From assembly GCF_964204645.1 (NCBI RefSeq), contig NC_134026.1, positions 12,175,950 through 12,239,949 of the forward strand: a stretch of DNA of 64,000 nt, given 5' to 3'. A model generated the notes under the pieces. It searched no databases. It was not told the origin of the DNA and saw only the letters and a list, made by a program, of their open reading frames with translations. Origin of the DNA: Tubulanus polymorphus (Eukaryota > Animalia > Nemertea). This document shows positions 3,216 to 64,000 of the stretch, in pieces; the first letter of the stretch is position 1; each line of letters opens with the position of its first letter. The translations under genes and the position numbers were made by a program.

Positions 3216-3865
3216 AAGCTATGTTCTTTCCAAGGCCCTTCCGAAAAAATAATCAAAATATTAGTTGAAAAATCGTTTTTATTTCAAAATAAAACGTTGA
3301 ATGAAAAATTAAGTCGGGACTCTTTATTGTTTCAAACATTTAAGTAAATCATTAACATAGAACTCTCAAACGAAAATTAACTTATCATCGCTTGTCAGAC
3401 CTTGATTGGCGCACGCCAAATATCAAAGCAACACGAACCCTTGCTGCAAACCTTTCATTGGTCTTATTACACACCCCAAGATGTCTTGGGCGGACAGTTT
3501 AACGCTCAGTGCCCACCAGTCTATAAATCTAGCCAATAGTCCGTCGTATTTTACTGGCAGGTTTGCTCTATGAATAGCAGGCATCTGATTGGCTAGACTG
3601 GTGGGCGCTGAGTATTTATCTGTCGGCCTAAGAAATCTTGGACAATGTAATAGACCAATGAAGGGTCTGCGGCCGGGTGTATGTTGCTGTGATATTCGGC
3701 GGGCAGCAATCAAACGAAATGATTTGTCAGACTTGCTTATGAATGAGTAAAGTCTTTAGTTAACAACACCTTTCCATTAATTGATATCAGTAATTGGAAA
3801 AGTAGCCTTTCAGATCAGAGGTCGAGACACCACTCATCACCACAAATAATTTTTTTCCCTTATAA

Positions 3866-25158: not shown

Positions 25159-25327
25159 AGTAATAGGGGTTTAGTTGTTCTAGATCAAAGGTCGACCGGT
25201 CGAGAAATTTTCCAAATGTGAAATAACAATAATTTCTACTTGAATTAGTCGCGCACACTCCTAATTCAAGTAGAAATTATTATTATTTAACATTTGGAAA
25301 ACCTAGAACAACTAAACCCCTATTACT
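25159..25327. repeat. Terminal fold-back palindrome of the Polinton
   Basis: 25-bp outer stem AGTAATAGGGGTTTAGTTGTTCTAG/CTAGAACAACTAAACCCCTATTACT, an inner stem of about 40 bp and a 12-nt loop. Confidence 0.92.
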
Positions 25328-27182: not shown

Positions 27183-27532
27183 TGTTACGCTCATTCTGTA
27201 CTGTACTTGTTTTTCTATTCTAAATCGAACTGTATGAACCTGTTGAAATATTTGAATTCTCCCGCCATGAATTAGTACTGGAAATCACGTGATTTCCTGG
27301 GCTTGTCGAGAGCTTTGGGTTTTGTTCAGTTCGCTTTGCGTGCTCGTCGTGTGTACATTCCTCCAAATTTTCACGTTAGTATAACTATTTGTATTATGCT
27401 TTTGATATTAATTTTGGTAGTATCTTATCATGTAATAATCCTTTCTTGTAGAAACATGTATTTTCGGTAATAAATCGTTGTAACAGAGAGAATACAGTCA
27501 TACAGTCGTCGTCGTATTTTCTGGTCGTAACA
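27183..27532 (+). repeat. 5' LTR
   Basis: TGTTACGCTC...GGTCGTAACA, a direct repeat of 33742-34092 (about 5 substitutions and 1 indel by eye). Confidence 0.97.
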
Positions 27533-30500
27533 TCGTTTGTGAAAATGGAGGACTTAGAACAAATGAAGAAGTCTCGAGCCGGATATAAAGCTAATGTAAC
27601 AAAGATAAGTAATCGTCTTCGCAAATGTCTCAAAGAGAATAGGAAATTTGAAGAAATCTTGCCCGTTGTAGAAGAATTAAAAGCCGCCTTCTCGAGATTC
27701 TCCGATTCCCATGATTCCGTTCATGAACGCTTACTTTCGGATGATGATATCGAACAATCGTTTATATATTATGACGCAGAAGAAAGCAAATATAAAGACT
27801 TGTTAATCAAAGTCAAGGGTTTAGGCGCTACGAGCCCAAGTCCAAGTCCGTCTGTTCCTACTACAGCGGAATCGGAAATTGACCAAGTCGAAAGAAGCGA
27901 AACCGAAAATATGAAAATGATGATCGACAATTTAATCAAGATGAGCCTCCCACAACAGGAGGTACCTGTTTTTTCAGGCGATCCGTCTGAATATTGTTTT
28001 TTTCTGAAATCGTTCGAAAGCATTATCGAAAGGAAAACTACTAGCAGCAGTGATCGTTTATACTACTTAATGCAGTATACCAAGGGTGACGTCCGCGAGC
28101 TGGTCCGTAGCTGTTTGGTACAGCAGCCCGACGAGGGTTACACAGAAGCTAAGCGATTAATTAAGCAATACTACGGTAATAGTTATGCGATTGCGACCTT
28201 ACTCGTGGATAAAATAATAAACGGGCCGATCGTTAAATCGGATGATGCTCACGCCCTTCAAAACTTGGCGATTCAGCTCGTAAGCTGTAAGAATACATTG
28301 ACCGAAATCGGATATATCAGTAAAGTGGAAAACCACTCCCGTTTGATCTGCGAAAGAAATGGAGAACAAAGGCAGATTATATCACCACATTTGAGGGTCG
28401 TGAGATATCAATCGAAGATATTTCTAGTTTCGTACAAACGGAGGCTCGAGTAGCGAATCATCCTGTTTTCGGGAATATTTCTGATGGGGTTAAGAAACCT
28501 TCACCTCATAAGTTGTCAAGATTCCCAGGGGCTTCTCCCGCTTCCCGAAATTTCGCTACTAATTCTCGATATAATTCAAGTAATGCATGGGTCAACTCAG
28601 CCCGTAATCCGAGAATTTGTAATCCGCCAACGAATAATTCAGCCGGTAATACGGGTACTGGTGCGTTGGTACTTCCAGGGTGCCCTTTGTGTTCGATAAA
28701 TGATCATTCTCTGGTGAATTGTCCAATATTTGTTAATAATTCATACGGGCAACGGGTTGAGTTTCTAAAGCTCAAGCGATTATGCTTTTATGTTTCGGTC
28801 CTAACCATATAGCTCGACAATGCAAAAGCAGAGTATCGTGTAGTGTATGAAACGGAAAACATGACAATCTATTGCATAGATATAATTTTCCCGCCAATAT
28901 TAACAATGACACTGTCGCGCCTACTTGTATCAACCCTACTGGTGTTTCTTCGTCACCCGTAGCGGCAACCGGTAGTAACACTCACTCAAATAATGCGATA
29001 AATCAATTCAATTAAACAAAGTAGGCCTATCATCGGTCGTATTGGTTTACCAATTGTACCGGTTAAAGTTAAGGGTAACGATAACGTTATTTTAACCTAT
29101 GCTTTGTTAGATTCGGGTAGTAACTCTACATTTTGCAAACAATCATTGCTCATCGACTTGGGGTATTCGCCCGACAGTTTAACTCGGAAAAATCTATCCC
29201 TGACAACGTTGACGGAGAATAACTGTTTAACTCAATCGTATGTCACTAATTTGGAGTTATCCGACATTGAGGATAATTTTACGAATGAACTGACTAATGT
29301 GTTTTCACGAAATTCATTGCCTATGACAAAAGACGATATTCCACGACAAAGTGACATAGACAAATATTCATATTAAGGCGACGTGATATTGCCCTTTATT
29401 GACGCTGACGTCGGATTGGTTATAGGAAATGATAATCATCAGGAACCGTTAGAGATTATAGGTAGCCATGACGACGGCCCTTATGCTGTAAGGACAATGT
29501 TCGGGTGGGTAATCAATGGTCCCCTGGGGGATAACGGACGGAGACTTAACTCTAAAAACAAGGTTTTTACTATTAAGACTGATGTAAGTGATGACATTCT
29601 GACCAGACAATTCGAATCTTATTGCAACAAAGAATTCAACGACAGAAATTATGATGATGACGTTTGTATGTCGCAGGAAGATAGGCGTGCACTTCAGATA
29701 ATGGAATCATCGGTTGTTTTGACGAGTGATAGTCATTTTCAGTTGGACTTACCTTGGAAGACTCAGCCGCCTAACTTACCTAACAATAAAGTCGTCGCTA
29801 TTCATCGACTGAGGAACCTTCGTAAACGTTCGTTAGGCGAGGCAAACTTATTTGAAGAATACGCAGGGTTCATCGATAAGATGATCAAGGCCCAGTTTTG
29901 TGAGATGGTACCAGAACACGATCTAGACCGCAGAGATGGCATGGTATGGTACTTACCCCACCATAGTGTGTATCATCCAACCAAAAAGAAAATAAGGGTT
30001 GTATTCAATTGCTCATCGAAATACATGAGAGTCTCACTCAATGACCGACTTTACCAGGGCCCGGACTTGACAAATTCCTTGATTGGTGTTTTAATACGCT
30101 TTAGGCAACAGCGAGTTGCTTTCATAGCAGACGTAGAAGGGATGTTTCACCAAGTGAGGGTAACTCCTAGTATGCGTGATGCGTTGAGGTTTCTTTGGTG
30201 GACAGATCGCAACCTGAACGAAGCAGCTACCGAGTATCGAATGCGTGTTCACCTTTTCGGTACCACTTCGTCACCCACATGCAGCAATTTTGCTTTAAGA
30301 AAGACCGCGATCGACAATAGGTCTCTGTTCGCCTCAGATGTCGCCGATACTGTACTCCGTAATTTCTACGTAGATGATTGTTTAAGATCCGTTCTCAGCG
30401 TCGACGAGGGAAAGCGACTAGTTAGTCAACTAATTCAGATGCTCACCAGAGGTGGTTTTAGACTGACTCAATTCTCGTCCAATTCCAGGGAAGTTTTGGA

Positions 30501-31580
30501 TACAGTTCCAGAGAGCGAGAGAGCTAAGACTGTGAAGTACCTGAACCTCGACAGCGAACAGTTACCGATGGAGAGAGCTTTAGGAATTTTATTGGACATG
30601 GAGTCTGACCAATTTCATTTCAGGGTAAAAAATGACTTGACGTCTAAGCCAAGTACTCGACGCGGTATATTATCCGCCATCAGCACACTATATGATCCGA
30701 TCGGATTTACAGCGCCTGTTTCACTCTCAGTGAAATCTGCGCTTCAAGAATTGAGTAGACTCAAACTGAGTTGGGATGATCCTATTCCCTACTGGTGCGA
30801 AAGACTGTGGAGTGAATGGCTTAAGGAGTTGCCGAAGTTGGAAGATTTGACAATAAGTAGATGTTTTAAACCAGCAGATCTCGACTGTGTCCCGTATACC
30901 GCACGACTCCACCACTTCGCCGACGCATCAGAGATCGGGTACGGGGCAGTGAGTTATATTCGCTTCGATTTTAATGGAAATGCTCATTGTTCTTTTGTTC
31001 TAGGGAAGTCTAGAGTCACTCCAATCAAGACCTTGAGTATCCCAAGACTCGAATTAGCGGCCGCAGTACTGGCGACACTGTTAGACAAGATGATACTGAA
31101 AGAATTGGATCCCCCTACTGAAAGATCGTGGTTCTGGACTGACAGCACTGCAGTGTTGAAGTACATTCATAATGAGAGCAGGCGTTTTCAGGTCTACGTA
31201 GCTAACAGAGTCTCCAAAATACGCGAACATTCGAGCCCTGACCAGTGGCATTTCGTCGAAGGTGTTTCTAACCCCGCCGATGATGCGTCACGAGGTCTGA
31301 AGCCGTCCCAGCTTACGCCTTCATCGAGATGGTTATCGGGGCCGGAATTCCTGTGTATGGACGAGAGTTCCTCGCCGGCATTTCCAGATGACGTTAACAT
31401 GGCAATAGACCCGTCAGATCAGGAATTAAAGAAGTCAGTGCTTTCTCACACCATCATCAAGAATGAAGAAGATTACTTGTTGAAATTCGTAGAACGATTT
31501 TCGTCTTGGCATATGCTGAAAAAATGTGTATCATGGATTAGGAACAGTTTAACACTCATACACTGGATAAACTTTGATAC

Positions 31581-31634
31581 TCACAAGAGCAAGCTTTCAC
31601 CTACATTCTGTAGGCATCGTCAGGCTTAATGTGA
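31581..31634 (-). ncRNA. Minimal type I hammerhead ribozyme (Penelope type)
   Basis: CUGACGA, stem II GCCUACA/UGUAGGU, GAAA, palindromic AGCU stem III, stem I UCACA..AGC/GCU..UGUGA. Confidence 0.75.
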
Positions 31635-32171
31635 CGTCATCAGATGTTGTTGATGTGACGTCACAGCCGGATCTCGTCAGCTGGTCTGTGAAGGCCCCCG
31701 CGCGCCATCTGCTGCCTTAAGGATGTTATTCCATACAGGGGGTAGAGCAAATCTCCCAAAGTCTTTATTCAGCGTGGGGTGTCTCAGGTATATGTAAAAT
31801 GACTCCTGAACACCTCGTACGAACCACCGGGGTTCCACCGTCAAAATGTCTGTGTTGCCTATATCAACAGAGTGATCAGGATTGTCAGTATGGATGTGTT
31901 GGGATACCTCTGACGTCACAGAGCTAGGTCGACGGTGTTCACCAAACCGGGCTCTCAAGGAGCGCTCAGTTTCACCAACATAACTCGCATCGCAAGATTC
32001 ACATTTAACATGGTACACCGGTCTAACTAATAACTGGCGTAACGTGTTCACCGGTTTAAAATACACACTAATGTTGTAGTCTTTCATCACCCGTCTGATT
32101 TGTTCAGACATGCCCTTCACATATGGTACTACGACCGATCTCTTACGTCACATCAACAACATCTGATGACG

Positions 32172-32225
32172 TCACATTAAGCCTGACGATGCCTACAGAA
32201 TGTAGGTGAAAGCTTGCTCTTGTGA
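32172..32225 (+). ncRNA. Minimal type I hammerhead ribozyme, inverted copy
   Basis: TCACATTAAGC CTGACGA T GCCTACA GAA TGTAGGT GAAAGCTT GCTCTTGTGA. Confidence 0.75.
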
Positions 32226-33741
32226 GTATCAAAGTTTATCCAGTGTATGAGTGTTAAACTGTTCCTAATTTGGATATTCCTGGATAGTAAAGAATGTTTA
32301 ATGGTATCATGGATCTTGAGATTCAAATCTATATTCTTACAGAAAATTCGCAAAGAGACGCCTGATACATTTCCTGGTAGAATAACGGTTACTGAACTGA
32401 GACGAGCAGAGCGTGAAATATTGAGTTACGTGCAGCGACGTCACTACCCAGACGAATGTTCTGGTATCAGTGACAAAACTTCTCGACTACTGCCTCTAGA
32501 CCCAGTTCGTATAGAGGGACTTCTAAGAGTTGGGGGAAGATTGAGACGGTCGAGTTTACCCTTTGAGATAAAGCACCCCATCATTGTTCCAAAGTCCTCT
32601 CATATATCTCATCTCATCATTGAATACTATCATCGCATGTTTGCTCATAAAGGTGTAGAGTTTATTTTATCTCAGATAAGACGTAAATTCTGGATAATTA
32701 ACGCTAAATCGATTATTAAGCGTATCTAACGCACATGCATCCCCTGTAGAAAACGAAAAGCTAAAGTAATGGAACAAAAAATGTCTGATTTACCTGGGGA
32801 TAGAGTAACTCCCGATTTGCCCCCTTTTTCAAACGTGGGAATAGATTATTTCGGTCCATTTCTAGTAAAACGGGGCCGGGCTCGCGAAAAACGGTACGGC
32901 TGTTTGTTCACATGTATGGCCAGCCGTGCTGTCCATATTGAAATGTGTCATTCTATGGATACGGATTCCTTCATATGTGCATTAAGGCGTTTCATTAGCC
33001 GTCGAGAATAAGAAGTGATAATGGCACTAATTTCGTCGGCGGACGACGCGAGTTGCGCCATGCGATCGAAAGCTGGAACCAGGAAAAAATTCACGAATTC
33101 TGCCTGCCGACCGCATCGCATATGGGTGGAACTTGGGAAAGAATCATCCGTACGATTCGAGATACTGTCACGGCCATCGCAGGCGAGCAAATCCTGGACG
33201 ATGAACGTTTCTCTACGTTAATGTGCGAGGTCGAAGCAGTAATAAATAATCGTCCTTTGACCGCAAATTCCGACGATCCTTCAGATTTGAACGCGCTATC
33301 ACCGAACCACTTGCTTCTCGCGAGATACGGTCCTCGGCTACCGCCCGGTAAATTCACTGAACGCGACAATTATTTAAGGAGATGGTGGCGTCAGGTACAA
33401 TATCTTGCGGATGTATTTTGGCGAAGATGGCTGTCCGAATATGTAGCCGTTTTGCAAAAGCGCTCGAAATGGTTTCGTCTCCGTAAAAACGTCCAAATCG
33501 GTGAACTTGTGTTAATTGTCGATGATAAAATCCCTCGATGCTCGTGGCTACTGGGGCGTGTAGTTTCTACATATCCCGATCAGGACGGGGTTGTCCGATC
33601 TGTCAAGCTGAGAACGCAAAACTCAGAGCTGATGCGACCCATTCAGAAGTGCATTCAATTAGAATGCTCTGTAGATGATTAATCTAATTGTAAATTGCTT
33701 CTTGTGATTAAATGCTAAAGCCTATTTAATGGGGCCGGAGA

Positions 33742-34092
33742 TGTTACGCTCATTCTGTACTGTACTTGTTTTTCTATTCTAAATCGAACTGTATGAACCT
33801 GGTGAAATATTTGAATTCTCCCGCCATGAATCAGTACTGGAAATCACGTGATTTCCTGGGCTTTGTCGAGAGCTTTGGATTTTGTTTAGTTCGCTTTGCG
33901 TGCTCGTCGTGTGTACATTCCTCCAAATTTTCACGTTAGTATAACTATTTGTATTATGCTTTTGATATTAATTTTGGTAGTATCTTAACATGTAATAATC
34001 CTTTCTTGTAGAAACATGTATTTTCGGTAATAAATCGTTGTAACAGAGAGAATACAGTCATACAGTCGTCGTCGTATTTTCTGGTCGTAACA
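33742..34092 (+). repeat. 3' LTR
   Basis: Direct repeat of 27183-27532, followed by the TSD ACCGG. Confidence 0.97.
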
Positions 34093-34511
34093 ACCGGTCC
34101 GATTGGACCGCTTTTCTATTGTTCTCCATTGTTCTATTATCGATCGTTGTTGACGGAAACAGCTGCTCAATATTGATTGGTTACATTTCTGTATTTCTAT
34201 GTTTGAATGTTGTAGTTTACAGAATAAAAATATAACTGTGTATTGCGCAATAACCGGTCCGATTGGACCGCTTTTCTATTGTTCTCCATTGTTCTATTAT
34301 CGATCGCTAAAATTTACATAATAAATATGTGTTTATGAAATAATATTTCCACCAGTCGTTTCGTTGAATTGATTTTCAGTTGAGGATTTATTATCGAGGA
34401 TCCGAAATGACTTATCAAAAGCAGCGAGGAATGAAAAAGGATGACGTTAGTCGAATAAATGGAGGAGGATTCTAAAATGTTAATCAATTTTAATAAAAAT
34501 TTGATTTATAA

Positions 34512-34727
34512 ATGGAAAGGAATAATGAATACAATAAAAAACTTATTTGGGGTTGGAAAGATTTAAGACCTCTTGAAAAGAAAGAAAATAAAATCAAATC
34601 TAATAAACTAGATTTACAGTTATATTTAGAACAGTTAACAAAGGCAAAGAAATTTATTGACCAATGGAACAATGATCCAAATAATGAACAATACGTTGAG
34701 GAATTTGATATCAAGGATCCGAAATGA
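34512..34727 (+). pseudogene. Duplicated C-terminal module of the HNH gene
   Basis: WGWKDLRPLEKKENKIKSNKLDLQLY matches the HNH tail; the 3' part matches 50694-50945. Confidence 0.75.
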
Positions 34728-35031
34728 TTTATCTGGACAGTTATAATTACTGCTCCTAATAGATAAACAAAAGTAGTGAGATATCAAATAGAATTCAAAT
34801 AAAATACATTAAAAAAACAACTTCAACTAGCCATTATTTCTATTTTAATTTTTAATATTTTCTTTTACAATTCTTTTCAAAAGAGAATACTTTATATCGC
34901 AAATAAAAAATACTAAAAAAACAATAACTAATACTAAAATTCTTTACCTTTAACTAACTAGTATTAACCCAAAGAGATGCTGGTATCATTTTATAATACT
35001 TATATTTTTTTCGCGTTTTTCTCTAATATAA

Positions 35032-35639
35032 ATGTCAAAGAAATCGAGTAAGAATAGTCTTGATATTGAAAAGACATTAGATGATTTGGGTATAAGTGAT
35101 AATAAGGATACAGTTGTAACTAATTGTGCTCAAGTTAATTGTAATATTGATTATGAATACTATTTATATTGTAAACACCATCTTGAATTACTAATTGCTG
35201 GTGGGAAATCTAAAGAGTTTTTAACTAAGACTATTACTTTTCAAGAATAAGATGCTATGAAACCAGATTAAGTAATAAAATATTTTAAGATTTATGAAGA
35301 AGCTAGATTAGCTAGAATAAATGATTTAAATCTATTTCAGATGGTATTGTCAAATGTTACTCTAAGTTATGTAACCAGTTAATACCAATTGATGATGAAA
35401 ATAAATTATATAATGATTTGAAAAATGACTACTTAGTTATGACTGAATTACAAAAATGGGTTGGTTATGCTTCATTTCAATTAGGATCGGTTATGACATT
35501 AATTTCTACTGGTGTCATAACATTTTCGAATATCAAGCCTATGGAATATAAATCAGGTAAGAACGAAACAGATGTACTACAACCAAATGGTGAAACAGAA
35601 AATGAATCAGAACAAAAATTAACTAAAATAAATGAGTGA
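35032..35639 (+). pseudogene. Polinton hypothetical protein, homologue of 51912-52514
   Basis: Near-identical translation, with internal stops and a frameshift. Confidence 0.9.
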
Positions 35640-35979
35640 TGGCGTTAAGAAAATGCCTAGATCCGAGAAACAAATTAAATGGGCAAGAGAATTAGGTAAA
35701 AGATCTGCAGAATTATCTGATATTGATTCAAATAATAATCCATCTGATTCTTCTAATAGTGGAAGAAATAATTACTTATATATTACAATTGGGTTAATCA
35801 CAATTATTATATTATCTGGTGTAATATATAAATCAAAATTCAAATCTGATGATAAAGATGATTCCAATGATGATCGGAAACTTAGTTATCCGTGTACAGA
35901 CAATAAACCTATCATACCAGAAAATAAGTCAAATCATAAAACCATTGAAACTAAATCTAAATTATTATTAATGGATTAA
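35632..35979 (+). CDS. Polinton single-TM protein, homologue of 52507-52893
   Basis: Near-identical, with an in-frame deletion. Confidence 0.8.
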   Translation: MSDGVKKMPRSEKQIKWARELGKRSAELSDIDSNNNPSDSSNSGRNNYLYITIGLITIIILSGVIYKSKFKSDDKDDSNDDRKLSYPCTDNKPIIPENKSNHKTIETKSKLLLMD

Positions 35980-35985
35980 AATAAG

Positions 35986-37057
35986 ATGAAAAAAGAACAA
36001 TATTTAAGAGATTAATATTATAACCCAGAAAGTGAAGTATCATATTCTAACGTTTCAGAATTATGGAATAAAATTAAATCTGATAATGAAAATATAAAAT
36101 ATAGTGAATTGAAATCATGGTTACAAAATCAACCAACATATCAAATCCATAAGAAAATGGATAAAACTTATTTAACAAGAAAAGTTATGGTTTCATATAT
36201 CGATCAACAATAGCAAGCAGATTTAATTGACATGAAGAACTTAGAAGAATACAACAAAGGATATTTCTGGATATTAAATGTTATAGACATATTCAGTAGA
36301 TACGCATGGTCAATTCCAATCAAAAATAAAACTGGTATAGAAGTGACAAATGCTTTTAAATCAATATTTAAAGAAGTTATTCCAGATAAGATACAATTTG
36401 ATGAAGGTAAGGAATTCTATAACAAACATTTTACTATTATCTGATAACGATGTAGAATATTTTTCAACACACTCAGATAAAAAAGCATCTATTATAGAAA
36501 GGTTTAATAAAACATTGAAAACTAGAATGTGGAAATATTTTACTGCTAATGAAACATATATTTATATCGATGTAATAGATGATTTAGTGAAAGGTTATAA
36601 TAATTCTAAACATAGTTCTATACATATGAAACCTATGCAAGCTAGAAAAGAAGATAATTCGGAAATAGTTTGGAATAATTTATATGGAGCATTTGTTACA
36701 CATGATTTTGGTGAACCTAAATTTAAAATAGGACAACACGTTAGAATATCTAAATATAGAAAAACCTTTTATAAAGGTTATACCCCTAATTTTACAGAAG
36801 AAATATTTAAGATTAAAAAGATAATATTAACTAAACCTTTTGTTTATGAATTAGAAGATTTAAAAAATGAAGAAATATTAGGTTATTTCTATGAACAAGA
36901 ATTATCACTTGTACCAAACCCAGATGAAATAGAATAGAAAGTATTGAAAACAAAAACTCTTAAAGGAAAAAAGTATTCTTTGGTGAAACATAAAGGATAC
37001 GATGAAAAATTTAATGAATGGATTTTATCTAGTAAAATTAAAAGAATAAATGAATAA
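35986..37057 (+). pseudogene. Retroviral-like integrase plus chromodomain, disrupted
   Basis: Copy of 52900-53985 with stops and frameshifts. Confidence 0.93.
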
Positions 37058-37661
37058 AGATTTATTTATATTTGAACCGCATAATATGTTAGTTACTGGA
37101 GTAACCAATTGTGGTAAAACACATTTCATATTAGATTTGTTAGAAACTATTTATAAGAATCATTTTGATAATATAATATTATTTTGCCCTACTTATCAAA
37201 TGAATAAAACATATAAAAGAGACATAGTTAAGATAAAAAAGTTTATTATATTAAATCCTAAAACAGTAAAAGAAAATTTAGATAATTGTATAAAAATAGC
37301 AATTGATACTTATAAAGGATCAAATACATTATTCATTATAGATGATTGCGCAAATTTACATGATTCAAAAGTGAGAGAAAGTGAGTTATGTTATTTAGCT
37401 TTCTCTGGGAGACATTTCGGGATAACAACATGGGTTTTAAATCAAAAATATCATTCAATTGTTAAAGACTTTAGGGAGAATATAAGATTTCTAGTTTTAT
37501 TTTATAACAAAGATAAAAAATCTATGCAACAATCATTAGAAGAAAATCAAATTATACCTACTGAATTACATGATGAATATATGAATAAATTAAAGAATAA
37601 TAAAGGTTCAAAATTATTACTGAGACTACAATTTCCATATGAATATAAATTTATAAAATAA
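37050..37661 (+). CDS. A32/FtsK-like packaging ATPase
   Basis: Walker A GVTNCGKT, Walker B LFIIDD, SGRH, and LNQ..IVKDFREN. Confidence 0.92.
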   Translation: MNKDLFIFEPHNMLVTGVTNCGKTHFILDLLETIYKNHFDNIILFCPTYQMNKTYKRDIVKIKKFIILNPKTVKENLDNCIKIAIDTYKGSNTLFIIDDCANLHDSKVRESELCYLAFSGRHFGITTWVLNQKYHSIVKDFRENIRFLVLFYNKDKKSMQQSLEENQIIPTELHDEYMNKLKNNKGSKLLLRLQFPYEYKFIK

Positions 37662-37675
37662 CTATTTATATACCT

Positions 37676-38060
37676 ATGTATTAGATACCCTATTAGATAC
37701 CCTAATACCTGATGCCCTATTAGATACCCTAATACCTGATGCCCTATTAGATACCCTAATACCTGATACCCTATTAGATACCTTAAATACTTAAAACCCC
37801 CTTTTTTAAAATAAATATTATTTATACAATTTTCAACCAATTTATTTTTATTTTTTCAACTAATATATGAATAAGTTTGAAAATAATAAAGGTTATTTAT
37901 TATTACTGAGGTTTCAATTTCCATATGAATATCAGTTTATAAAATAAGATATTTTATGTATTAGATTGTATTAGATATGTATTAGATACCTTAAATACCT
38001 TAAATACTTAAAACCCCCTTTTTTAAAATAAATATTATTTTTACAATTTTCAACCTTTAT
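37676..38060. repeat. 27-bp minisatellite and local duplication 3' of the ATPase
   Basis: (CCCTATTAGATACCCTAATACCTGATG) x3; the block ACCTTAAATACTTAAAACCCCCTTTTTTAAAATAAATATTATTT is repeated at about 37780 and 37997. Confidence 0.85.
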
Positions 38061-39358
38061 TACTTTTTGAGTTAAATATAATTAATATCTTAATCACTTT
38101 CACTATCAGACCCCCCTAACAATTTATTCAAATGCTCTATCGAATCTTCTTCTAATTCTTCATTGTTTTTGACGCCTTATAAAACGTTACCATTATGAAA
38201 CCTAAACAATGATAACCATTCAGCGTCATTTTACAAACGACAACCTTAAATCGATGTGCAAAACGTCACAGGTTTATGTGTACACATACAAGCTATTTGG
38301 CAAAATATTATTGATAAAGATGTAGAATGGCTCCCCGGGATTATATAATGACCTCTATTTGAACGTTGAAATGTTATATCGCATTGAATATCATGAGAAG
38401 ACGTATTGTAATAGTAAAGGATGTATGATTATATCAGGGGCGGCAGGGATAAATAGAAATGATAAGTAAATCGGATTATTCGGTTAAATGGCGGATGTAT
38501 ACACGATTTGGAAGTCTGATATAAAAGTCAGACCCTGACATGGGGATGCTAGTGGAATGACGAAGCTATCTACGATCTGAGTTGGGCCGGCGTGAATTTC
38601 ATCGGCGGCTACAAGCGGTCTATATAAAAACGTGTAAACATATAATTTCAATATTCAAATGTTTTAGAAAATATGTTCGATATTAGACGTATGCAGGTTT
38701 CATGAGATTAGCAATTTATAATAGCATAGCTGTCATATACGGCTCCGCGTCCACTAATGGCATGTGTATAAGGTGACAATTAAATTCAATACTTTATTGA
38801 TCCTTATTACATTGAAATTCCGGGATAAAATTCCAAAAATCAATACATTTACAAATTTTAAAATAAGAAAATACAAGACACACGGGTAATTCATACAGAA
38901 TAACATGAATAAGTTAATTATATGACAATGTCTACTTCTACCCAGACTCAAGTCTAGGATATCAAGTGACAGCCAGACCGGGCCCCAGGACCGGGCTGGC
39001 TGGCTACACGCTATATGCTCAAAGTCATGATGAAGCAGACATCAGAAGAGCTCTTTCTTCAACCATGGAGGCAATGAAGTTGCAGACCAGCTTAGAGGCA
39101 AAAGTGAATCGAAGTCACAAGTTGACAATTTTTTTTTAATGAGACCAGTCGAAGACTGTATCATCTACCCAATCGCCAAATCTCATAATTCCCGAAATTT
39201 CTTAAAACTTCGATTTCAAATTTGCAATTCCACATTAGCTTATACCAGAAATTCTACATTTTTTCGCAGGCGTCAAATAATTTATTAAAGTTAATTTTCT
39301 TGTTATACTTATTCTTCACCCTTTTTACCGCATCATCAATAGTTGTTTCATTGTTATG

Positions 39359-40097
39359 CTAATTCATCCAATCAAATTTATCATTATTTTCTACTTTATG
39401 TTTCATAGAATCTTTATTATCAATATCTGTAACTATTTTTTTATTATTATCTTTATTAGTGTTTGCTCCTAATATTTCATTTACAGTGTTTGGCTCTAAT
39501 ATTTTATTAGCATCAGTTAGATCTAATTCATCTTTATTAGGTGTTGCTAATAATAAATCTTCATATAATTCTTTACCATTTACTTTTTTTATTTGAAACA
39601 AACTTTGTAACATATTTAAATGGGTGTTCTATAAATTCTCTTAAACCAACACGTTCTATTACATTAGTAATATGTACCTTTGTATTCATATGTTTATTCC
39701 AATTTGATGGAGCGTTTGAAAATTCACCTTTACAATAATCACAATAATTTCTTTTTTCACTAATATTTAATATTATTTCATTATTTGATGTAGAAGGTAT
39801 TACATTATTAGATGTAGAAGGTATTGCATTATTAGATGTAGAAGGTATTGCATTATTAGATGAAGAAGGTATTACATTATTAGATGTAGAAGGTATTACA
39901 TTATTATCAATTACATTACTTAAATTATCAACGACACCACTTTTATTATTATCGATTTCTATTAGTTTAGTTTTATAAATTTTGAAAATAGGATCAAATA
40001 TCAAAGCTATATTACAAGGTATTACATAATATAAACTATCATTATTTTCATGTGTATCGATGTATGGAATATGTTTATATACTTTACCTCCTTCCAT
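39359..40097 (-). pseudogene. Polinton Zn-finger protein with an NNVIPSTS octapeptide repeat (positional equivalent of 55241-56397)
   Basis: MEGG start, 24-bp repeats and a YCDYC...WNKHMNTKVH finger. Two overlapping ORFs suggest a frameshift. Confidence 0.7.
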
Positions 40098-40130
40098 TTA
40101 TTATATAAATTTTTATTAAAGTTAAAATTC

Positions 40131-40872
40131 TAATACATAACACTATTTAATTGAGAATTTACAATATTTAATTGCGCGTCAGATATAATATAAATGTGCA
40201 TTCTTGATTCCTTTATTCTTTGTCATGAATAATTGTATTCCATCTTTAGTGTTCTGTAATTTTTTTCCAGAACCATGCAATGAATTATCCTCTGTTGTTC
40301 TAAAATTTAACCATAATGCATATTTATTACCGGTATAATAATCAATTTGATTAATATTACAATTTTCAGATGATTTTACTTTTTCATTCATAAAATGTTT
40401 TCTAATTTCTGGCCATTGATCAATCATTCTCATTCCTTGACAAAATATTTTATTTGCTATTCCTTCGATAGTTATTTCTACTTTTGTTATTTCAGGATTA
40501 TAATAATTATCAACATTTATTGCAACATTAGTATATGTTGCAATGGTGAAAAATATTAATATACCTTTAGTAGATCTTCTTGGGAAGTTAATATTCTCAT
40601 TAATAATTTCATCTTTTGCATTAATAGTTACAGTTTTAAATTTATCAATATAATCATATAATAATGAAAATCCTTGATTGTATTTAGTTTGAAATATACT
40701 TGAAATATTTTCATTAGTTACTGTATCATATTCTAAACATATATTCGATAATTTATAACCCATATCTTTATTAATGCTAGATATTACAATTTCATTAACA
40801 GGAGCAAATGTTATCTCAAATATAACATCTTCTTGAATTGCGTATTTATATAAAGGTGCATTATTATTTATC
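40131..40872 (-). pseudogene. C-terminal part of the Polinton major capsid protein
   Basis: Near-identical to the C-terminal 60% of 56430-57677; truncated at about 40872. Confidence 0.88.
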
Positions 40873-41779
40873 AAACCAGTGACACTCGGGTCATCAATGT
40901 TCAAATCGAATTGAAATAAGATAATTATTTATTGTGGGATTCGAATCTAATTGAAACGGAAACATTGAAGTCATCAAAACACACATTCATTATGCGTACT
41001 GACATGACCCAGTTTTGAAAGATCTGACATGTAGTGACGCCTGCGCACTCAACCGATTTCTGGACTAAGAGAATTTCCCCCAACACTCACTAATGCACAT
41101 GTGTTAAAAACGGAGACATTGGAAACATTACGGTTTTTGCCGTAATTCTAGCAGCCCTCCGCGACTCAACGACCTTGATTTAAACTTGATCAATTCAAAA
41201 TCTGTTTATTGACGCTTTTGGTTACATGAACTGATCAGCAATATACTTAAATGAAATAACCGGAATAACAAGAAATCAAAAATATTAAAGAGGTAACAAA
41301 CAAATGCCCGTAAACCTGTCAGACACGCGAACGCCGGACTCGTAAACTCTTGGACTCGGACCAGCTGAGCAATAAATTCATAAAATTGACTTTGAAATTG
41401 ATTGTGGAGAAGAGAGGGAATAATTCGATAGCTCTTCCTCATAAAGAAGGGAGAAATTTCGGAAAGAAAACACAACATGGCTACTAATTGAACGGAGCCA
41501 AATTTCCGATGTTTACGGCTCGACAGTGCCTTTATAACGTGGATTTATCAAAATTCCCATGCAGTATCTGGAGATTGAAGTGAGCTGAAGGATATCATAC
41601 GGATTGTATCGGCGACAGCGGTAAGGTAAGGAAGCCTTTACACTTTTAACAAAAACTATGTGGAAAAGGGAAAAAAATGATAAATATAGCTGCAAAGCAG
41701 CAATATCGGGTTTCTGCCTTGCTGGATACAATGTCGTATAAGGGTGCGTGCAAACATTTCACCGAAAGCAGTTCATAAC

Positions 41780-49740: not shown

Positions 49741-50205
49741 TCCCAGAAAAAAAGTTTTCACTCGGTACCTTTGAAGTCGGGTCGGTCGGGTTACGGCAAA
49801 CAAACCATTAATATGGGATGGCCTAAAATTCATATGATGTCACATATCAAAGGGGGCCGAATATATACAATATTCAGCCCTCGACCTATACTTGTAGTTT
49901 GCTGCTTAATATTTTCAGGTCACAAGAAATTACAATTTATTACAAATTCTATCAAACAGAAAACACAGCGCTCATCTTCTGCTACGATTATTCAGCCTAT
50001 TTTCATGTCAAACGTGCACGCGTTTCAGCATCACTTTTAGTAGTGTACTGTACGAGCTTGTGTGTGTGTGTCGTCTAGCACTCCGCGCGCACGTGGAGGC
50101 CTCGTGTAAGTAATTGTTCGCTTACACTTTAATGTCAATCAAAACAATCACCGGGTATTAAAATGAAACAATACCTATTGCGGATGTGTGAAATAATTAC
50201 ATCCT

Positions 50206-50611
50206 AGTAATAGGGGTAATGGGCTTTCAGGCCAAAGGTCGAACGGTCGAGCCCATTAAAAAACAAAATATTAAAAGTAATTAAAAAACTATAATATATT
50301 TTCATAACCGCGTGCATTTTATATCAAAACTAAATATTTATTCTAAGATATCAATAATATAAAAAGCATATTGTATTAAATCAATTGGTCGCTCCACTTC
50401 GCTACCGCTCCGCTCCGCGACCAATTGATTTAATTACAATACACACATTCAAATAATCAAATATATTCAAATGATAATAATTATTCTATTATTCAACTGA
50501 AATGCACGCGGTTATGAAAATATATTATAGTTTTTTAATTACTTTTAATATATGTTATTAATGAACTCGATCATTAAACCTTTAGCCTGAAAGCCCATTA
50601 CCCCTATTACT
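50206..50611. repeat. Terminal fold-back palindrome, 406 bp
   Basis: Perfect stems of 27, 52 and 17 bp separated by unpaired bubbles, with a 24-nt pyrimidine-rich apical loop. Confidence 0.95.
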
Positions 50612-51023: not shown

Positions 51024-51686
51024 ATGGAACCAGAACAACCACAAATTATCAATATTACAAATAACACTGGCGTTATAAACATATACTACAAGAAGTGTTC
51101 TAAATGTGAATTAGATAAATCATTAACAGAATTTAGTAAGCGTAAGATTAGCAAAGATGGTTTTCAATATTGCTGTAAAACTTGTTTTAAACTATACACC
51201 AAACAATACCGAGAAGATAATATAGAACATTATAATTATTATATGGCAGAATATATGAGAGAAAGATATCAAACAGATCTTAATTTTAGATTGAAACAAT
51301 GTTTACGGTCTAGATTAACACAATTATTCAACAAAGAAACACATTCAGAAACATTATCTGATCTATTAGGTTGTTCAGATGAATTTCTCAAATCATGGAT
51401 AATATATCAATTCGATGATAAAATGAATATAGATAATTATGGTGAATACTTTCATATTGATCATGTGTTACCAATATCTAAATTTGACATGAATGATGAA
51501 TACAATAAAAAACTTATTTGGAATTGGAAGAATTTTAGACCTTTAGAAAAGAAAGAAAATCAAATCAAATCTAATAAACTAGATTTACAGTTATATTCAG
51601 AACAGTTAACAAAGGTAAAGAAATTTATTGAATTATGGAATTCAACACATAATGAACAATACGTTGAGTCTTTAATGAGTGGTTAA
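51024..51686 (+). CDS. Zn-ribbon plus HNH endonuclease (giant-virus type)
   Basis: CSKC..CCKTC and HIDHVLP...WKNFRPLEKKENQIKSNK. Confidence 0.85.
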   Translation: MEPEQPQIINITNNTGVINIYYKKCSKCELDKSLTEFSKRKISKDGFQYCCKTCFKLYTKQYREDNIEHYNYYMAEYMRERYQTDLNFRLKQCLRSRLTQLFNKETHSETLSDLLGCSDEFLKSWIIYQFDDKMNIDNYGEYFHIDHVLPISKFDMNDEYNKKLIWNWKNFRPLEKKENQIKSNKLDLQLYSEQLTKVKKFIELWNSTHNEQYVESLMSG

Positions 51687-52899: not shown

Positions 52900-53985
52900 A
52901 TGAAAAAAGAACAATATTTAAGAGATTTATATTATAACCCAGAAAGTGAAGTATCATATTCTAACGTTTCAGAATTATGGAATAAAATTAAATCTGATAA
53001 TAGCAATATAAAATATAGTGAATTAAAATCATGGTTACAAAATCAACCAACATATCAAATCCACAAGAAAATGGATAAAACTTATTTAACAAGAAAAGTT
53101 ATGGTTTCATATATCGATCAACAATGGCAAGCTGATTTAATTGATATGAAGAACTTAGAAGAATATAACAAAGGATATTTTTGGATACTAAATGTTATAG
53201 ATATATTCAGTAGATACGCATGGAGTATCCCGATTAAAAATAAAACTGGTATAGAAGTTACAAATTCTTTCAAATTAATATTTAAAGAAGCTATCCCAGA
53301 TAAAATACAATTTGATGAAGGTAAAGAATTTTATAACAAACATTTTAAAAAACTATTAACTGATAACGATGTAGAATATTTTTCAACACATTCAGATAAA
53401 AAAGCATCTGTTATAGAAAGATTTAATAAAACATTGAAAACTAGAATGTGGAAATATTTCACCGCTAATGAAACATATAAATATATCGATGTGTTAGATG
53501 ATTTAGTTAAAGGTTATAATAATTCTAAACATAGTTCTATAAATATGAAACCTATACAAGCTAGAAAAGAAGAAAATTCAGAAATAGTTTGGAATAATTT
53601 ATATGGAGCATTTGTTACACATGATTTTGGAGAACCTAAATTTAAAATAGGACAACATGTTAGAATTTCTAAATATCGAAAAACATTTTATAAAGGTTAT
53701 ACCCCTAATTTTACTGAAGAAATATTTAAAATTAAAAAGATAATATTAACTAAACCATTTGTTTATAAACTAGAAGATCTAAAAGATGAAGAAATATTAG
53801 GTTATTTCTATGAACAAGAATTATCACTTGTACCAAATCCAGATGAAATAGAATACAAAATAGAAAAAGTATTGAAAACTAAAACTCTTAAAGGAAAAAA
53901 GTATTCTTTGGTGAAATATAAAGGATATGATGATAAATTTAATGAATGGATTTTATCTAGTAAAATTAAAAGAATAAATGAATAA
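52900..53985 (+). CDS. Retroviral-like (c-)integrase with C-terminal chromodomain
   Basis: WQADLIDM, IDIFSRYAW, QFDEGKEF, IERFNKTLK, YNNSKHSSI, and chromodomain YKIEKVL...LVKYKGY....NEWI. Confidence 0.97.
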   Translation: MKKEQYLRDLYYNPESEVSYSNVSELWNKIKSDNSNIKYSELKSWLQNQPTYQIHKKMDKTYLTRKVMVSYIDQQWQADLIDMKNLEEYNKGYFWILNVIDIFSRYAWSIPIKNKTGIEVTNSFKLIFKEAIPDKIQFDEGKEFYNKHFKKLLTDNDVEYFSTHSDKKASVIERFNKTLKTRMWKYFTANETYKYIDVLDDLVKGYNNSKHSSINMKPIQARKEENSEIVWNNLYGAFVTHDFGEPKFKIGQHVRISKYRKTFYKGYTPNFTEEIFKIKKIILTKPFVYKLEDLKDEEILGYFYEQELSLVPNPDEIEYKIEKVLKTKTLKGKKYSLVKYKGYDDKFNEWILSSKIKRINE

Positions 53986-54593
53986 AGATTTGTTTATATT
54001 TGAACCACATAATATGTTAATAACTGGAGTTACAAATTGTGGTAAAACACACTTCATATTAGATTTATTAGAAACTATTTATCAGAATCATTTCGATAAT
54101 ATAATATTATTCTGCCCAACTTATGAAATGAATGAAACGTATAATAGAGATATAGTTTTTAAAGATAAAAAGTTTATTATATTAAATTCAAAAACAGTGA
54201 AAGATAATTTAGATAATTGTATAAAAATTGCAATAGATATTTATAAAGGATCTAATACATTATTTATTATTGATGATTGCGCAAATTTACATGATTCAAA
54301 AGTTAGAGAAAGTGAGTTATGTTATTTAGCTTTCTCTGGGAGACATTTTTGGGATAACAACATGGGTTTTAAATCAGAAATATAATTCAATTGTGAAAGA
54401 TTTTAGAGAGAATATAAGATTTCTAGTTTTATTCTACAACAAAGATAGAAAATCTATGCAACAATCATTAGAAGAAAATCAAATTATACCTACTGAATTA
54501 CATGATGAATATATGAATAAATTAAAGAATAATAAAGGTTCCAAATTACTTATGAGATTACAATTTCCATATGAATATAAATTTATAAAATAA
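53978..54593 (+). pseudogene. Packaging ATPase with a one-base frameshift
   Basis: GVTNCGKT and IIDD. CATTTTTGGG at about 54345 versus in-frame CATTTCGGG in the 37050 copy. Confidence 0.9.
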
Positions 54594-54651
54594 CTATTTG
54601 TATACCTATGTATTAGATACGTATTAGATATGTATTATATACCTCCCCTAA

Positions 54652-55213
54652 TGTCTTTATTATCTTTAGTACTTTAGTACTTTTAGTACATAAAGAATAA
54701 ATCTTTATTTTATTAATACTTTAAAAATAAAATAGAACTACTAAACTACTAAAGATAATAAAGACATAACAAACACCATAGATTTATCATTACTGAATCA
54801 AATATATATAATAAATCTGTAAGATAAATAAATTTATGATATTTATTACATCTATATGTGTTTGTTATGTCTTTATTATCTTTAGTAGGTTTAGTACTTT
54901 TAGTACATAAAGAATAAATCTTTATTTAATTAGTACTTAGAAAAATAAATATATAAATAATTTTTATAAATTATAAATCTATGATATATATAATAAATAT
55001 GTGTGATAAATAGATTTAATTATTGAAACAGTAATATATAAAATCCATCAGATGAATAAATATAATTATTGAAACAGTGTTATATATATATTTATGTCTT
55101 TATTGTCTTTAGTAGTTTAGTAGTTTTAAAAATAATTTTATTCACTACTAATAAAATAAAGATTTATTCTTTATGTACTAAAAGTACTAAACCTACTAAA
55201 GACAATAAAGACA
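54652..55213. repeat. Nested AT-rich inverted repeats between the convergent gene blocks
   Basis: TGTCTTTATT(A/G)TCTTTAGTA motif forward at about 54652, 54868 and 55095 and reversed ending at about 54766 and 55213. Outer arms are about 65 bp. Confidence 0.9.
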
Positions 55214-55240
55214 CAAAGGGTATTATATTCATATTTTAAA

Positions 55241-56429: not shown

Positions 56430-57677
56430 TTAATACATAACACTATCTAATTGTGAATTTACAATATTTAATTGCGCGTCAGATATAATATAAATGTGCA
56501 TTTTAAAATTTTTGATTCCCTTTTTCTTTGTCATGAATAATTGTATTCCATCTTTAGTGTTCTGTAGTTTTTTTCCAGAACCATGTAATGAATTATCCTC
56601 TGTTGTTCTAAAATCTAACCATAATGCATATTTATTACCGGTATAATAATCAATTTGATTAATGTTACAATTTTCAAATGATTTTATTTTTTCATTCATA
56701 AAATGTTTTTTAATTTCTACCCATTGATCAATCATTCTCATTCCTTGACAGAATATTTTATTCGCTATACCTTCGATAGTTATTTCTACTTTTGTTATTT
56801 CAGGATTATAATAATTATCAACATTTATTGCGCCATTAGTATACGTTCCAATAGTAAAAAATATTAATATACCTTTAATAGATCTTCTAGGGAAGTTAAT
56901 ATTCTCATTAATTATTTCATCATTTGCATTAATAGTTACAGTTTTAAATTTATCAATATAATCATATAATAATGAAAATCCTTGATTGTATTGAGTTTGA
57001 ATTATACTTGAAATATTTTCATCAGTTACTGTATCATATTCTAAACATATATTCGATAATTTATAACTCATATCTTTATTAACGCTAGATAATACAATTT
57101 CATTTACAGGAGCAAATGTTATCTCAAATATAATATCTTCTTGAATTGCGTATTTATATAAAGGTGCATTATTATTTATCAATTCAAAGTCTAATGGAAT
57201 TTTATATTTGCTTCCATATATACTTTTTATCAATTTATCTACATCATTTGTTAATATTGCGCTATTAGCTTCTGATCTTAATTTATTTTGGTTTTCCGAT
57301 TGGATGCCTTGAAATATCATATTATTTCTATTTTCTTTAGTTAACCATAAATCTTTATAATGCATAAATAAATTATAATCATCTAATGAGAAAACTGTTT
57401 CCGGACCAATCTTTATTGTTAACTTTTTAATCAAATATCTTCCAACATTATCAACAACATAATTATTATTATTACCGGCTACTGTTATATCGGCTGATAA
57501 ATAAATACTATTTGGAACGTAAAAAGTATTTTGTGTTAATCTAGGAATTCTAACATATAAAGTTTCATCGGGATTAATATTTGAAGGGTTATGAGTAATT
57601 ATATGATGTGATCTTTCTGCTTTAATAGCGTTAGATATTCTAGAAATCTTCGAAGGACTTATATAACTCCCACTCAT
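56430..57677 (-). CDS. Probable major capsid protein (double jelly roll)
   Basis: 415 aa, beta-rich; NPSNINPDETLYVRIP, NVGRYLIKKLTIKIG and YALWLDFRT...LHGSG resemble recalled invertebrate Polinton MCPs; size and context fit. Confidence 0.8.
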   Translation of the reverse strand: MSGSYISPSKISRISNAIKAERSHHIITHNPSNINPDETLYVRIPRLTQNTFYVPNSIYLSADITVAGNNNNYVVDNVGRYLIKKLTIKIGPETVFSLDDYNLFMHYKDLWLTKENRNNMIFQGIQSENQNKLRSEANSAILTNDVDKLIKSIYGSKYKIPLDFELINNNAPLYKYAIQEDIIFEITFAPVNEIVLSSVNKDMSYKLSNICLEYDTVTDENISSIIQTQYNQGFSLLYDYIDKFKTVTINANDEIINENINFPRRSIKGILIFFTIGTYTNGAINVDNYYNPEITKVEITIEGIANKIFCQGMRMIDQWVEIKKHFMNEKIKSFENCNINQIDYYTGNKYALWLDFRTTEDNSLHGSGKKLQNTKDGIQLFMTKKKGIKNFKMHIYIISDAQLNIVNSQLDSVMY

Positions 57678-62767: not shown

Positions 62768-63109
62768 TTATTCGAAATCTATTTCATGGTGCCCTTTTTC
62801 ATTCTTACTTTTGTATACGAAATAGAAATCACCAGAACATAATTCTTCTAGATCTTCACTTGATAATCTATGAAATCTATCTGGTAAATATGTTCTGAAT
62901 TTATATGTATTTCCTTTTAATCCTTCATATTCTAAATGAATTACTAATTTATCTCCATATTTATTAGTAATTGTTTCAATGTTAGTAATTAAATATTTCT
63001 TGTGAATTGTTAACTCAGTTAGTTTTTTAAATTTATAATCTACAGATTTTACATTTGTGGTATCTTTAATTCTATCTAAGAATTCGCTGTGTACTTGTTT
63101 ACTCTCCAT
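62768..63109 (-). CDS. Small protein next to PolB, possibly an OB-fold ssDNA-binding protein
   Basis: KKLTEL..KKYLIT....TNKYGDKLVIHL...YLPDRF. The fold is inferred. Confidence 0.5.
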   Translation of the reverse strand: MESKQVHSEFLDRIKDTTNVKSVDYKFKKLTELTIHKKYLITNIETITNKYGDKLVIHLEYEGLKGNTYKFRTYLPDRFHRLSSEDLEELCSGDFYFVYKSKNEKGHHEIDFE

Positions 63110-63137: not shown

Positions 63138-64000
63138 TTAACACGCTAGAATCCTTTTCATAATCTCATTTTCTTTTGTTTCTTCTCTTTTGAATTTTAT
63201 ATATTCATCTAAATTGCAACCATAGGCGACTGTGTGGATTCCATCATCTAAAATATATCTTTTATCATCAAATGGGTTTAGACTTATCTTCTCTATCTCT
63301 TCAATATACATTTCATGATCTTCAGATCTTAAACATTTCATCTTATGTTTTCTAACTTCTTCATTAAATATACAATTGATGTAATCTTTAAAATGAATAT
63401 TCTTTTCAACAACGCTTTTGGTTATTCCTTTTAACTTTTTAGCTTCATGTTCTTTAGTTTTATATGAATACATTTTAGATCTAATACCAATGAACTCTAT
63501 CATTTCTTCACCGCCTAATTCATCCTTAAACTTCCCTGGAACTTTTTTATTATCATTGCTAAACAATTCATGATCTTTAGGATAGTTACTAAAATCAAAA
63601 TGATGTTTTAATGTTTTTAAATCATCTGTTATGTTATCAGTTTTTATCTTTAATATGAAACTGTCGGTATCAAAGTATAGAATTTCTATGTGTTTTTCTC
63701 CAAAATGAGGTTGTAGTATATTATAATAAAATTTATACATTAGGAATTTTGAAATTTCTAGAACTGCAGCACCAACATAAATAGGTTTATTGAACTTCAT
63801 TGAAGTTCTTTTCATTTTAACTGCTGCTAAATTTTCATCAAATATTCTGTTACCTATAAACTTAGGATATGATTGTAAATGCCTAATTCTTTTACCATTA
63901 CTGACTAACTCGATATCATTTCTATTTCTAATATTTTCACAAGTCTTACCATAGAATGCATTATTCATTAACTTAAAAAAATCTTTATCAAAATCAGTTT
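63138..64000 (-). CDS. polB: Protein-primed family B DNA polymerase, C-terminal part, intein-free allele
   Basis: KLMNNAFYGKT (motif B), YFDTDS (motif C), GKFKDE, RSKMY, KGI and DDKRY. Confidence 0.97.
   Translation of the reverse strand, partial: TDFDKDFFKLMNNAFYGKTCENIRNRNDIELVSNGKRIRHLQSYPKFIGNRIFDENLAAVKMKRTSMKFNKPIYVGAAVLEISKFLMYKFYYNILQPHFGEKHIEILYFDTDSFILKIKTDNITDDLKTLKHHFDFSNYPKDHELFSNDNKKVPGKFKDELGGEEMIEFIGIRSKMYSYKTKEHEAKKLKGITKSVVEKNIHFKDYINCIFNEEVRKHKMKCLRSEDHEMYIEEIEKISLNPFDDKRYILDDGIHTVAYGCNLDEYIKFKREETKENEIMKRILAC

Follow-up and report, generated by a model that had tools for sequence, protein, structure and literature searches.

The element and its gene content

The window, that is, the whole stretch of 64,000 nucleotides that was analysed, holds the left part of a Polinton whose terminus is a 406-nt imperfect palindrome (Table 1), together with a number of fragments of the same family, of which it is a graveyard. 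The element behind the palindrome is a Polinton belonging to an AT-rich, high-copy family. The G+C content falls to ~23% to the right of the palindrome, and two hallmarks of a Polinton, a protein-primed family-B DNA polymerase (pPolB) and an rve integrase, are present in this main copy. Its rightward gene block contains a small zf-U1-type ORF, the HNH-nuclease gene (ORF2), two ORFs without matches, the integrase gene, whose product also has a weak chromodomain match below cut-off (PF00385, E 8e-5), and a packaging-ATPase gene, while the candidate capsid gene and pPolB lie on the other strand. Profile scans of the window ORFs of the Pfam and PHROG type gave no match to a protease. The right end of the element was not found within the 64-kb window, as the element runs off at position 64000.

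Table 1. Features of the main Polinton copy, of the diverged copy 2 and of a distantly related Polinton in the window
Feature	Positions	Strand	Basis or remarks
Imperfect palindrome, 406 nt, left terminus of the main Polinton copy	50206..50611	.	Sequence, DNA fold and read boundary
Terminal stem, 27 bp, perfect	50206-50232 / 50585-50611		Base pairing
Outer arm of terminal stem	50206..50232	+	First 11 nt, AGTAATAGGGG, common to copy 2
Outer-arm motif CAAAGGTCGAACGGTCGAG, GGTCGA direct repeat	50233..50251	+	27 nt from the tip
Central stem, 52 bp, perfect	50268-50319 (outer arm) / 50500-50551 (partner)		
Apical stem, 18 bp, perfect	50375-50392 / 50417-50434		Within 50375..50434
Apical loop, 24 nt	50393-50416		G+C-richer
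Inner arm of terminal stem	50585..50611	+	Element interior directly after, common to copy 2
ORF2, zinc-ribbon and HNH nuclease	51024..51686	+	Gene no. 2 behind the fold-back; phrog_1035, E 1.2e-17
rve integrase	52900..53985	+	PF00665, E 8.4e-9, 36.1 bits (cut-off 32.6)
A32-type packaging ATPase, short (135 aa)	53978..54385	+	PF04665, E 4.7e-9, profile positions 10-127 of 242
Candidate major capsid protein	56430..57677	-	Weak match, PF16903 (Capsid_N), E 0.0075, below cut-off
pPolB, C-terminal part (286 aa)	63141..64000	-	YFDTDS polymerase motif; gene runs off the window
Copy 2, diverged, 169-nt terminal fold-back	25159..25327	.	Same 11-nt tips, same inner junction
Distantly related Polinton, apparent terminus	3789..3834	+	AGTAAT, 27 nt, then CAGAGGTCGA

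The putative nuclease encoded by ORF2 has a conserved DH...N...N motif; its match to the Pfam family HNH_4 is only weak. The AlphaFold model of the protein, with a mean pLDDT of 61.6 and values below 50 in the HNH part, is too poor for a fold search, and a PDB sequence search with ORF2 and with the pPolB part gave matches at chance level only. In one homologue (P0004) the HNH protein is fused behind a deoxynucleoside-kinase domain (PF01712).

Long relatives of the pPolB part number 2,520; the closest is 87% identical and 1,363 aa long, and one carries PF03175. The part also matches an Atlas look-alike cluster. An Atlas search with a 433-aa ORF yielded no usable match. Full-length relatives of the polymerase (P0006, P0012, P0021 and P0034; 1,143-1,365 aa) have an Endonuclease_7 match (PF02945) in the middle of the protein, at 21-31 bits with a cut-off of 23.6, whereas the fifth relative that was scanned, P0005, has none. 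A structure-specific nuclease inside the polymerase would fit with ends that fold back. By BLAST, ORF2 and the Endonuclease_7 region of P0012 show no likeness. P0034 additionally has an N-terminal Rho_N match, which occurs in many other pPolB relatives as well.

The packaging-ATPase ORF is 135 aa long in the main copy, as compared with 203 aa in copy 2 (37050-37658), so that the gene of the main copy looks truncated, which suggests, from the reading frames, a decayed provirus. The gap between the rightward and the leftward gene blocks is occupied by a dense nest of inverted repeats (54650-55220), whose arms measure 34-93 nt and are 87-97% complementary, along with short tandem repeats. This nest may serve as a terminator for both directions, as a joint for recombination or as a second origin.

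Anatomy of the terminal palindrome

The preliminary description of this DNA had claimed a fold-back of 406 nt in which the first base of the element pairs with position 50611, and this is borne out both by the sequence and by the computed fold of the single strand, in which base 50206 is indeed paired with base 50611. The stretch 50206-50611 folds at -119.3 kcal/mol, as compared with -29.1 ± 3.5 kcal/mol in 100 shuffled sequences, none of which equalled it (z = -26). The 27-bp and 52-bp stems, which had also been claimed, were recovered as perfect complementary runs, and the three short stems between them (AAAGGT/ACCTTT, TCGAG/CTCGA and CATTAA/TTAATG, separated by mismatches) are present in the minimum-energy fold. 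At the apex the letters of the loop are as described, while the stem below it is one base pair longer than the 17 bp originally given. The terminal 27-mer has only two sites in the window, namely the two arms, with none expected by chance.

Between the 52-bp and the 18-bp stems, ~55-65 AT-rich nucleotides per arm show neither pairing nor alignment of arm to arm, in agreement with the unpaired AT-rich stretch of the preliminary description. Several of the bubbles described there are private mutations of the main copy: most reads of the family carry other letters at 50253 (86%), 50571 (79%) and 50576 (79%), which would pair better. The perfect stems, with 97 paired positions and no mismatch, adjoin unalignable stretches, a pattern that an old duplication decaying uniformly would not produce.

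An Rfam search with the palindrome returned only matches to miRNA precursors far below threshold (25.5 as against 81 bits), which are attributable to the hairpin shape. The 27-mer had no match in a phage collection, and IMG/VR gave no match to the 27-mer, to the capsid-like protein or to a degenerate pattern of tip plus motif. Eight letters are shared by the apical loops of the main copy and of L004, a metagenomic relative described below, but a match of this size is within chance and was discarded.

Boundary and copy number of the element

The boundary of the element was located with raw reads, covering 1.93 billion letters, from run X6, which is labelled with the same species. Just before 50206/50205, 1,883 + 623 reads (2,506 in all) are clipped, or 1,456 + 477 reads under a stricter setting requiring 90% likeness, and the loose parts of these reads agree with one another at only 0.34-0.36, which points to many different insertion sites. 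Together with the tip of copy 2, which stands behind an unrelated flank, these unrelated clipped flanks identify position 50206 as a real element boundary. It is thus confirmed that the left end of the Polinton is a real DNA palindrome, beginning at the true outer boundary of the element. The left flank of the main copy (49900-50205) is itself a high-copy repeat with a depth of ~1,100, and 897 reads run past 50205 with uniform sequence (agreement 0.92), representing the empty-site form; the main Polinton copy sits inside another repeat. Flank and variant letters taken from the loose ends of reads in two queries had no match in the window.

A hairpin spread as a stand-alone MITE would have host flanks on both of its sides, giving a heterogeneous cluster of loose ends at 50611/50612, and would outnumber the parent element; the reads do not show such a distribution. 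No cluster of loose ends was found at 50611/50612 among the clusters listed, the smallest of which has 459 reads, as against the 2,506 reads at the outer boundary. The depth of the hairpin interior, summed over both orientations, is 945-1,762 and that of the inner flank 1,679-1,774, so that the hairpin is not amplified over the element. Solo hairpins are accordingly not dominant, a minority of solo copies being possible.

The two tips differ in depth, with 3,056-3,825 at the outer tip (50206-50259) and 1,759-2,235 at the inner tip, a ratio of ~1.7. Part of the drop behind 50262 is due to copies with another interior (573 reads). The ratio means that many termini carry a different inner arm or none, and it is too ambiguous to tell whether a fold-back is missing from right ends. 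Read joints of the "opposite strands" kind (4, 7 and 4 reads) were considered as possible snap-back molecules and rejected, as mapping to a palindrome alone yields such joints.

The same plan in other copies and relatives

Copy 2 starts, behind its unrelated flank, with the same 11 letters as the main copy and ends its fold-back with these letters inverted, after which it joins the same interior sequence. The fold-back of copy 2 has a computed energy of -57.8 kcal/mol (z = -15.6) and carries the motif at 25186-25204. The region of copy 2 (25159-40900) is interrupted at ~27.4-33.7 kb by a BEL/Pao retrotransposon (DUF1759, RVT_1, Peptidase_A17, DUF5641), from which the host genome looks animal-type; the retrotransposon has a 130-nt inverted repeat of its own, 98% complementary (31537-31666/32140-32269).

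A search with a close pPolB relative led to further relatives on metagenome contigs. One of these, the independent record L004, has a 257-nt fold-back (190-446; -69.6 kcal/mol, z = -12.9) behind a G+C-rich flank. A small ORF lies 124 nt downstream of this fold-back, and an intact pPolB ORF of 1,363 aa lies 560 nt downstream of it. A direct copy of the first 17 letters of its tip (190-206) occurs at 948-964, 44 nt upstream of the pPolB start codon. Another record, L001, begins inside a similar fold-back. In L002 (1-7154) and L004 a 121-aa ORF stands upstream of pPolB, and the genes pPolB, HNH, ORF3, ORF4 and integrase follow one another, all on one strand; in the window element pPolB lies on the far side and on the other strand, and the homologue of the small ORF (62771-63109) lies downstream of it. 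L004 had been taken as proof that the pPolB-side (right) end folds back, and this was withdrawn because gene order differs between relatives; the end of L004 may correspond to the left end of the window element.

The main copy, copy 2, L004 and the distantly related Polinton at 3789 all start with AGTAAT, followed exactly 27 nt in by CA(A/G)AGGnCGA, and in the first three of these the motif is a direct repeat, GGnCGA-NN-GGnCGAG. The Polinton at 3789 has a zf-U1 ORF (identity in the first ORF is 50%), two ORFs and then the N-terminal part of pPolB (5674-6777; PF03175, E 6e-14). Despite the shared tip, register and motif, no inverted copy of the tip was found at this Polinton, from which it follows that the fold-back is not indispensable in the wider group. 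A G+C-rich imperfect palindrome of ~315 nt (3402-3713) lies 75 nt upstream of this terminus, and the 541-nt stretch that holds it (3330-3870) folds at -103.7 kcal/mol (z = -11.6); having tips unlike AGTAAT, it is probably an unrelated fold-back element.

Covariation of the arms

The fold-backs of the main copy and copy 2 are conserved at their edges and dissimilar within. The tips are identical at 11/11 positions, the motif at 18/19, the inner flank at 30/36 and ORF2 at 579/660, whereas only 6 of the 14 stem positions 12-25 are identical, and each of the eight differences has its mirrored counterpart in the inner arm. Between the two hairpin interiors no alignment is possible (local score 22-24, with a shuffle mean of 22). 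When the terminal stem of L004 is added, 17 of the 27 columns are variable and 13 of these 17 keep Watson-Crick pairing in all three sequences, with 5 of 81 cells mispaired.

The reads of the family show the same tendency in part. Complementary changes of the partner occur in six of the 13 variable arm-to-arm pairs, with frequencies on the paired positions of 24/32, 35/36, 26/81, 50/60, 71/73 and 41/71%, these frequencies being unphased and the palindrome inviting mis-mapping, although only 45 of the 10,106 placed reads fit two places. A deletion of one nucleotide is likewise mirrored (50283-84 and 50531). For the other seven variable pairs there is no mirrored partner among the variants listed. 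In the motif region the two arms have not been homogenised, which means that copying from arm to arm, if it occurs, is partial.

The arms thus evolve together, as read from sequence comparison, and this needs either pairing combined with copying or repair, or a repeated regeneration of the structure. That the fold-back is a heritable structure of the end is supported by its recurrence in copy 2 and L004, with the same plan in other sequence and with covarying arms; recurrence and covariation together argue for pairing of the arms, or for copying of one from the other, in the life cycle of the element.

It has to be noted that fold-back copying, if it took place anew time and again, would also lead to covariation without any function being involved. 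The palindrome would then be a neutral by-product, carried along as a passenger, either of a copy-back or template-switch error of a strand-displacing polymerase or of a miniature two-ended derivative captured beside a truncated element, with the arms kept alike by recurrent regeneration or gene conversion. This explanation, which is considered unlikely while deserving serious weight, draws on the related Polinton at 3789, which does without a fold-back, on the free variation of the interior and of the length (169 nt in copy 2, 257 nt in L004 and 406 nt in the main copy), on the rare shorter variants in the reads (11 and 16 reads) and on the bubbles that are private to the main copy, and accidental annealing has been named as an alternative for the comparable protist elements discussed below. 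It is opposed by the finding that plan and register recur both in diverged copies and in a separate record, the motif there too being confined to the outer arm, by the retention of the inner junction between the main copy and copy 2 while the interior has been replaced, by the contact of perfect stems with unalignable stretches, and by the lack of a cluster at the inner boundary among the read clusters listed, according to which solo hairpins are not dominant.

Fixed orientation and the hairpin-telomere question

The intact GGnCGA repeat stands on the outer arm in all three complete fold-backs (main copy, copy 2 and L004), while the inner arm has a degenerate form of the motif in the main copy, L004 and L001 and none in copy 2, where a 23-nt bulge takes its place. 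Among the read variants listed, which go down to 233 reads, there is no flop-type variant at 50564, 50565, 50573, 50577 or 50584, the five positions at which the inner arm of a flop form would deviate from the main copy. The flip/flop isomers of the bubbles that the preliminary description had envisaged were therefore not seen, the orientation being fixed in the three fold-backs and in the read variants listed.

The same description had likened the structure to the telomeres of poxviruses and asfarviruses and to the ends of parvoviruses. In a true hairpin telomere, the free genomes would end in hairpins and prime themselves, the hairpins being either nicked, as in parvoviruses, or covalently closed, as in poxviruses. 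The geometry would allow for this, because the 3' end of the bottom strand is predicted to pair flush with the inner arm and to face the genome as a template, and a nuclease gene lies nearby. An inversion of the palindrome in every cycle should, however, randomise its orientation, and the fixed orientation therefore disfavours a reading of the parvovirus or poxvirus type. Furthermore, neither an HUH (Rep/NS1) nickase nor a RuvC-like resolvase was found in Pfam and PHROG scans of the ORFs of the part of the element within the window, and the element has pPolB. The likeness to these telomeres is not supported, and a true hairpin telomere is regarded as very improbable.

Comparison with known systems

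The GGnCGA repeat resembles the Rep-binding elements of parvoviruses, in which a motif is likewise repeated within the stem at a set distance from the tip. The palindrome shares with parvovirus hairpins its terminal position and a folded 3' end that could, from its geometry, act as a primer; it differs in that no flip/flop was seen and no HUH nickase found, in that it belongs to a double-stranded integrating element with pPolB, and in being much longer and more variable. With poxvirus and asfarvirus telomeres it has in common an AT-rich, incompletely paired terminal palindrome, while the flip/flop isomers that define those telomeres are unseen here, no RuvC-type resolvase was found in the part of the element in the window, and the structure is known here from integrated copies.

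The replication of Polintons is said to have been described by Kapitonov and Jurka in 2006 by a "racket" model. A summary of this model is given in a preprint of July 2026 (bioRxiv 10.64898/2026.07.28.741278), which is also the one description of terminal palindromes in this supergroup that a full-text search of the literature returned; neither "hairpin" nor "palindrom" occurs in the text of the adintovirus paper (PMC8502044). The preprint reports terminal palindromes of ~52 nt in endogenous virophages of Halocafeteria seosinensis (subtypes 1, 2, 5 and 6) as well as in PLV subtype 4, going preferentially with replication genes other than pPolB, and proposes for these protist virophages and PLVs a model of hairpin priming, which can be counted in favour of a hairpin telomere. 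As in Halocafeteria, the palindrome studied here occupies the extremity of an integrated member of the Polinton/PLV/virophage supergroup and adjoins the host junction; unlike the Halocafeteria palindromes, the fold-backs described here are 169-406 nt long, occur in an animal-type genome and are linked to pPolB (at a distance of 560 nt in L004).

Fold-backs and a terminal protein also coexist in the telomeres of linear Streptomyces replicons, where, as reported in PMC4513846, the synthesis of the ends is protein-primed and the 3' strands contain tightly packed palindromes. These telomeres differ from the present element in being bacterial, in using unrelated proteins, in having several short palindromes in place of a single long fold-back and in the lack of integration.

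Models of end maintenance

The reading that is preferred here, with a probability of roughly 0.45, is that 50206-50611 is an inverted duplication of the tip by means of which a displaced strand snaps back and rebuilds or repairs the duplex end for protein-primed replication. It is based on the anatomy of the palindrome, its terminal position, the recurrence of the plan, the covariation of the stem, the turnover of the interior, the fixed orientation and the linkage to pPolB. In this model the outer tip and the motif would serve as sequence-specific sites for the integrase and/or a complex of terminal protein and polymerase, while the inner arm would be a nearby partner with which the 3' end of the displaced strand could pair. 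Such pairing would restore a duplex end on which protein-primed initiation could take place, in the manner of a local panhandle or racket. The inner arm might also act as the template for recopying a tip that has suffered erosion or mutation, keeping the arms identical. By its geometry the folded 3' end would be a primer directed towards the remainder of the genome, so that occasional self-primed run-on synthesis is to be expected as a side reaction, and the neighbouring HNH nuclease would be a putative processor of folded structures.

The proposed step is similar to the adenovirus panhandle and the Polinton racket, in that the intrastrand pairing of inverted termini would restore a duplex end and would allow one copy to be repaired from the other; it differs from these in that the partner is 170-400 nt away at the same end, whereas theirs is the other end of the element, 15-20 kb away. 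Against the snap-back reading stand the absence of a fold-back from the Polinton at 3789, the seven variable pairs without a mirrored partner among the variants listed, the outer-to-inner depth ratio of ~1.7 and the lack of homogenisation of the motif.

A more far-reaching version regards the fold-backs of this lineage, fixed in orientation, as self-templating telomeres, in which each end would use its inner arm to restore its duplex origin and to copy its tip afresh without the far end, could prime itself, and would have its structures processed by nucleases of the HNH or Endonuclease-VII type; this version is conceivable but doubtful.

An alternative of a different kind holds that the palindrome acts in protein recognition or regulation rather than in DNA synthesis, extruding as a cruciform or forming a bipartite site to which the integrase, the HNH nuclease or packaging proteins would bind, with a role in excision, integration, packaging or as a promoter of the first genes. 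The conservation of the direct-repeat motif at a fixed 27 nt from the tip speaks for this, as do a nuclease gene with conserved catalytic residues in second place behind the fold-back and the Endonuclease_7 matches in four of the five scanned pPolB relatives. Binding sites alone, however, have no need of a paired interior that is hypervariable and 170-400 nt long, and in relatives the HNH gene sits behind pPolB, away from the end. A role restricted to recognition is consequently judged improbable.

Significance

To our knowledge, the replication and end maintenance of Polintons/Mavericks have never been shown, and the only model is that of the racket with protein priming. Terminal palindromes as such have already been described; the present element adds their association with pPolB in a genome of animal type, a plan in three parts, the covariation of the arms and the evidence against flip/flop. 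Terminal palindromes are thus not confined to the polymerase-less virophages and PLVs of protists. For annotation it matters that such ends fool TIR finders and short-read assemblers. A conserved and covarying fold-back at the ends of pPolB elements is a testable structure, consisting of a tip, a motif placed 27 nt inward and a stem that is paired but free in its sequence, and a self-folding end, if it acts in copying, would add an unrecognised step to the replication of such elements.
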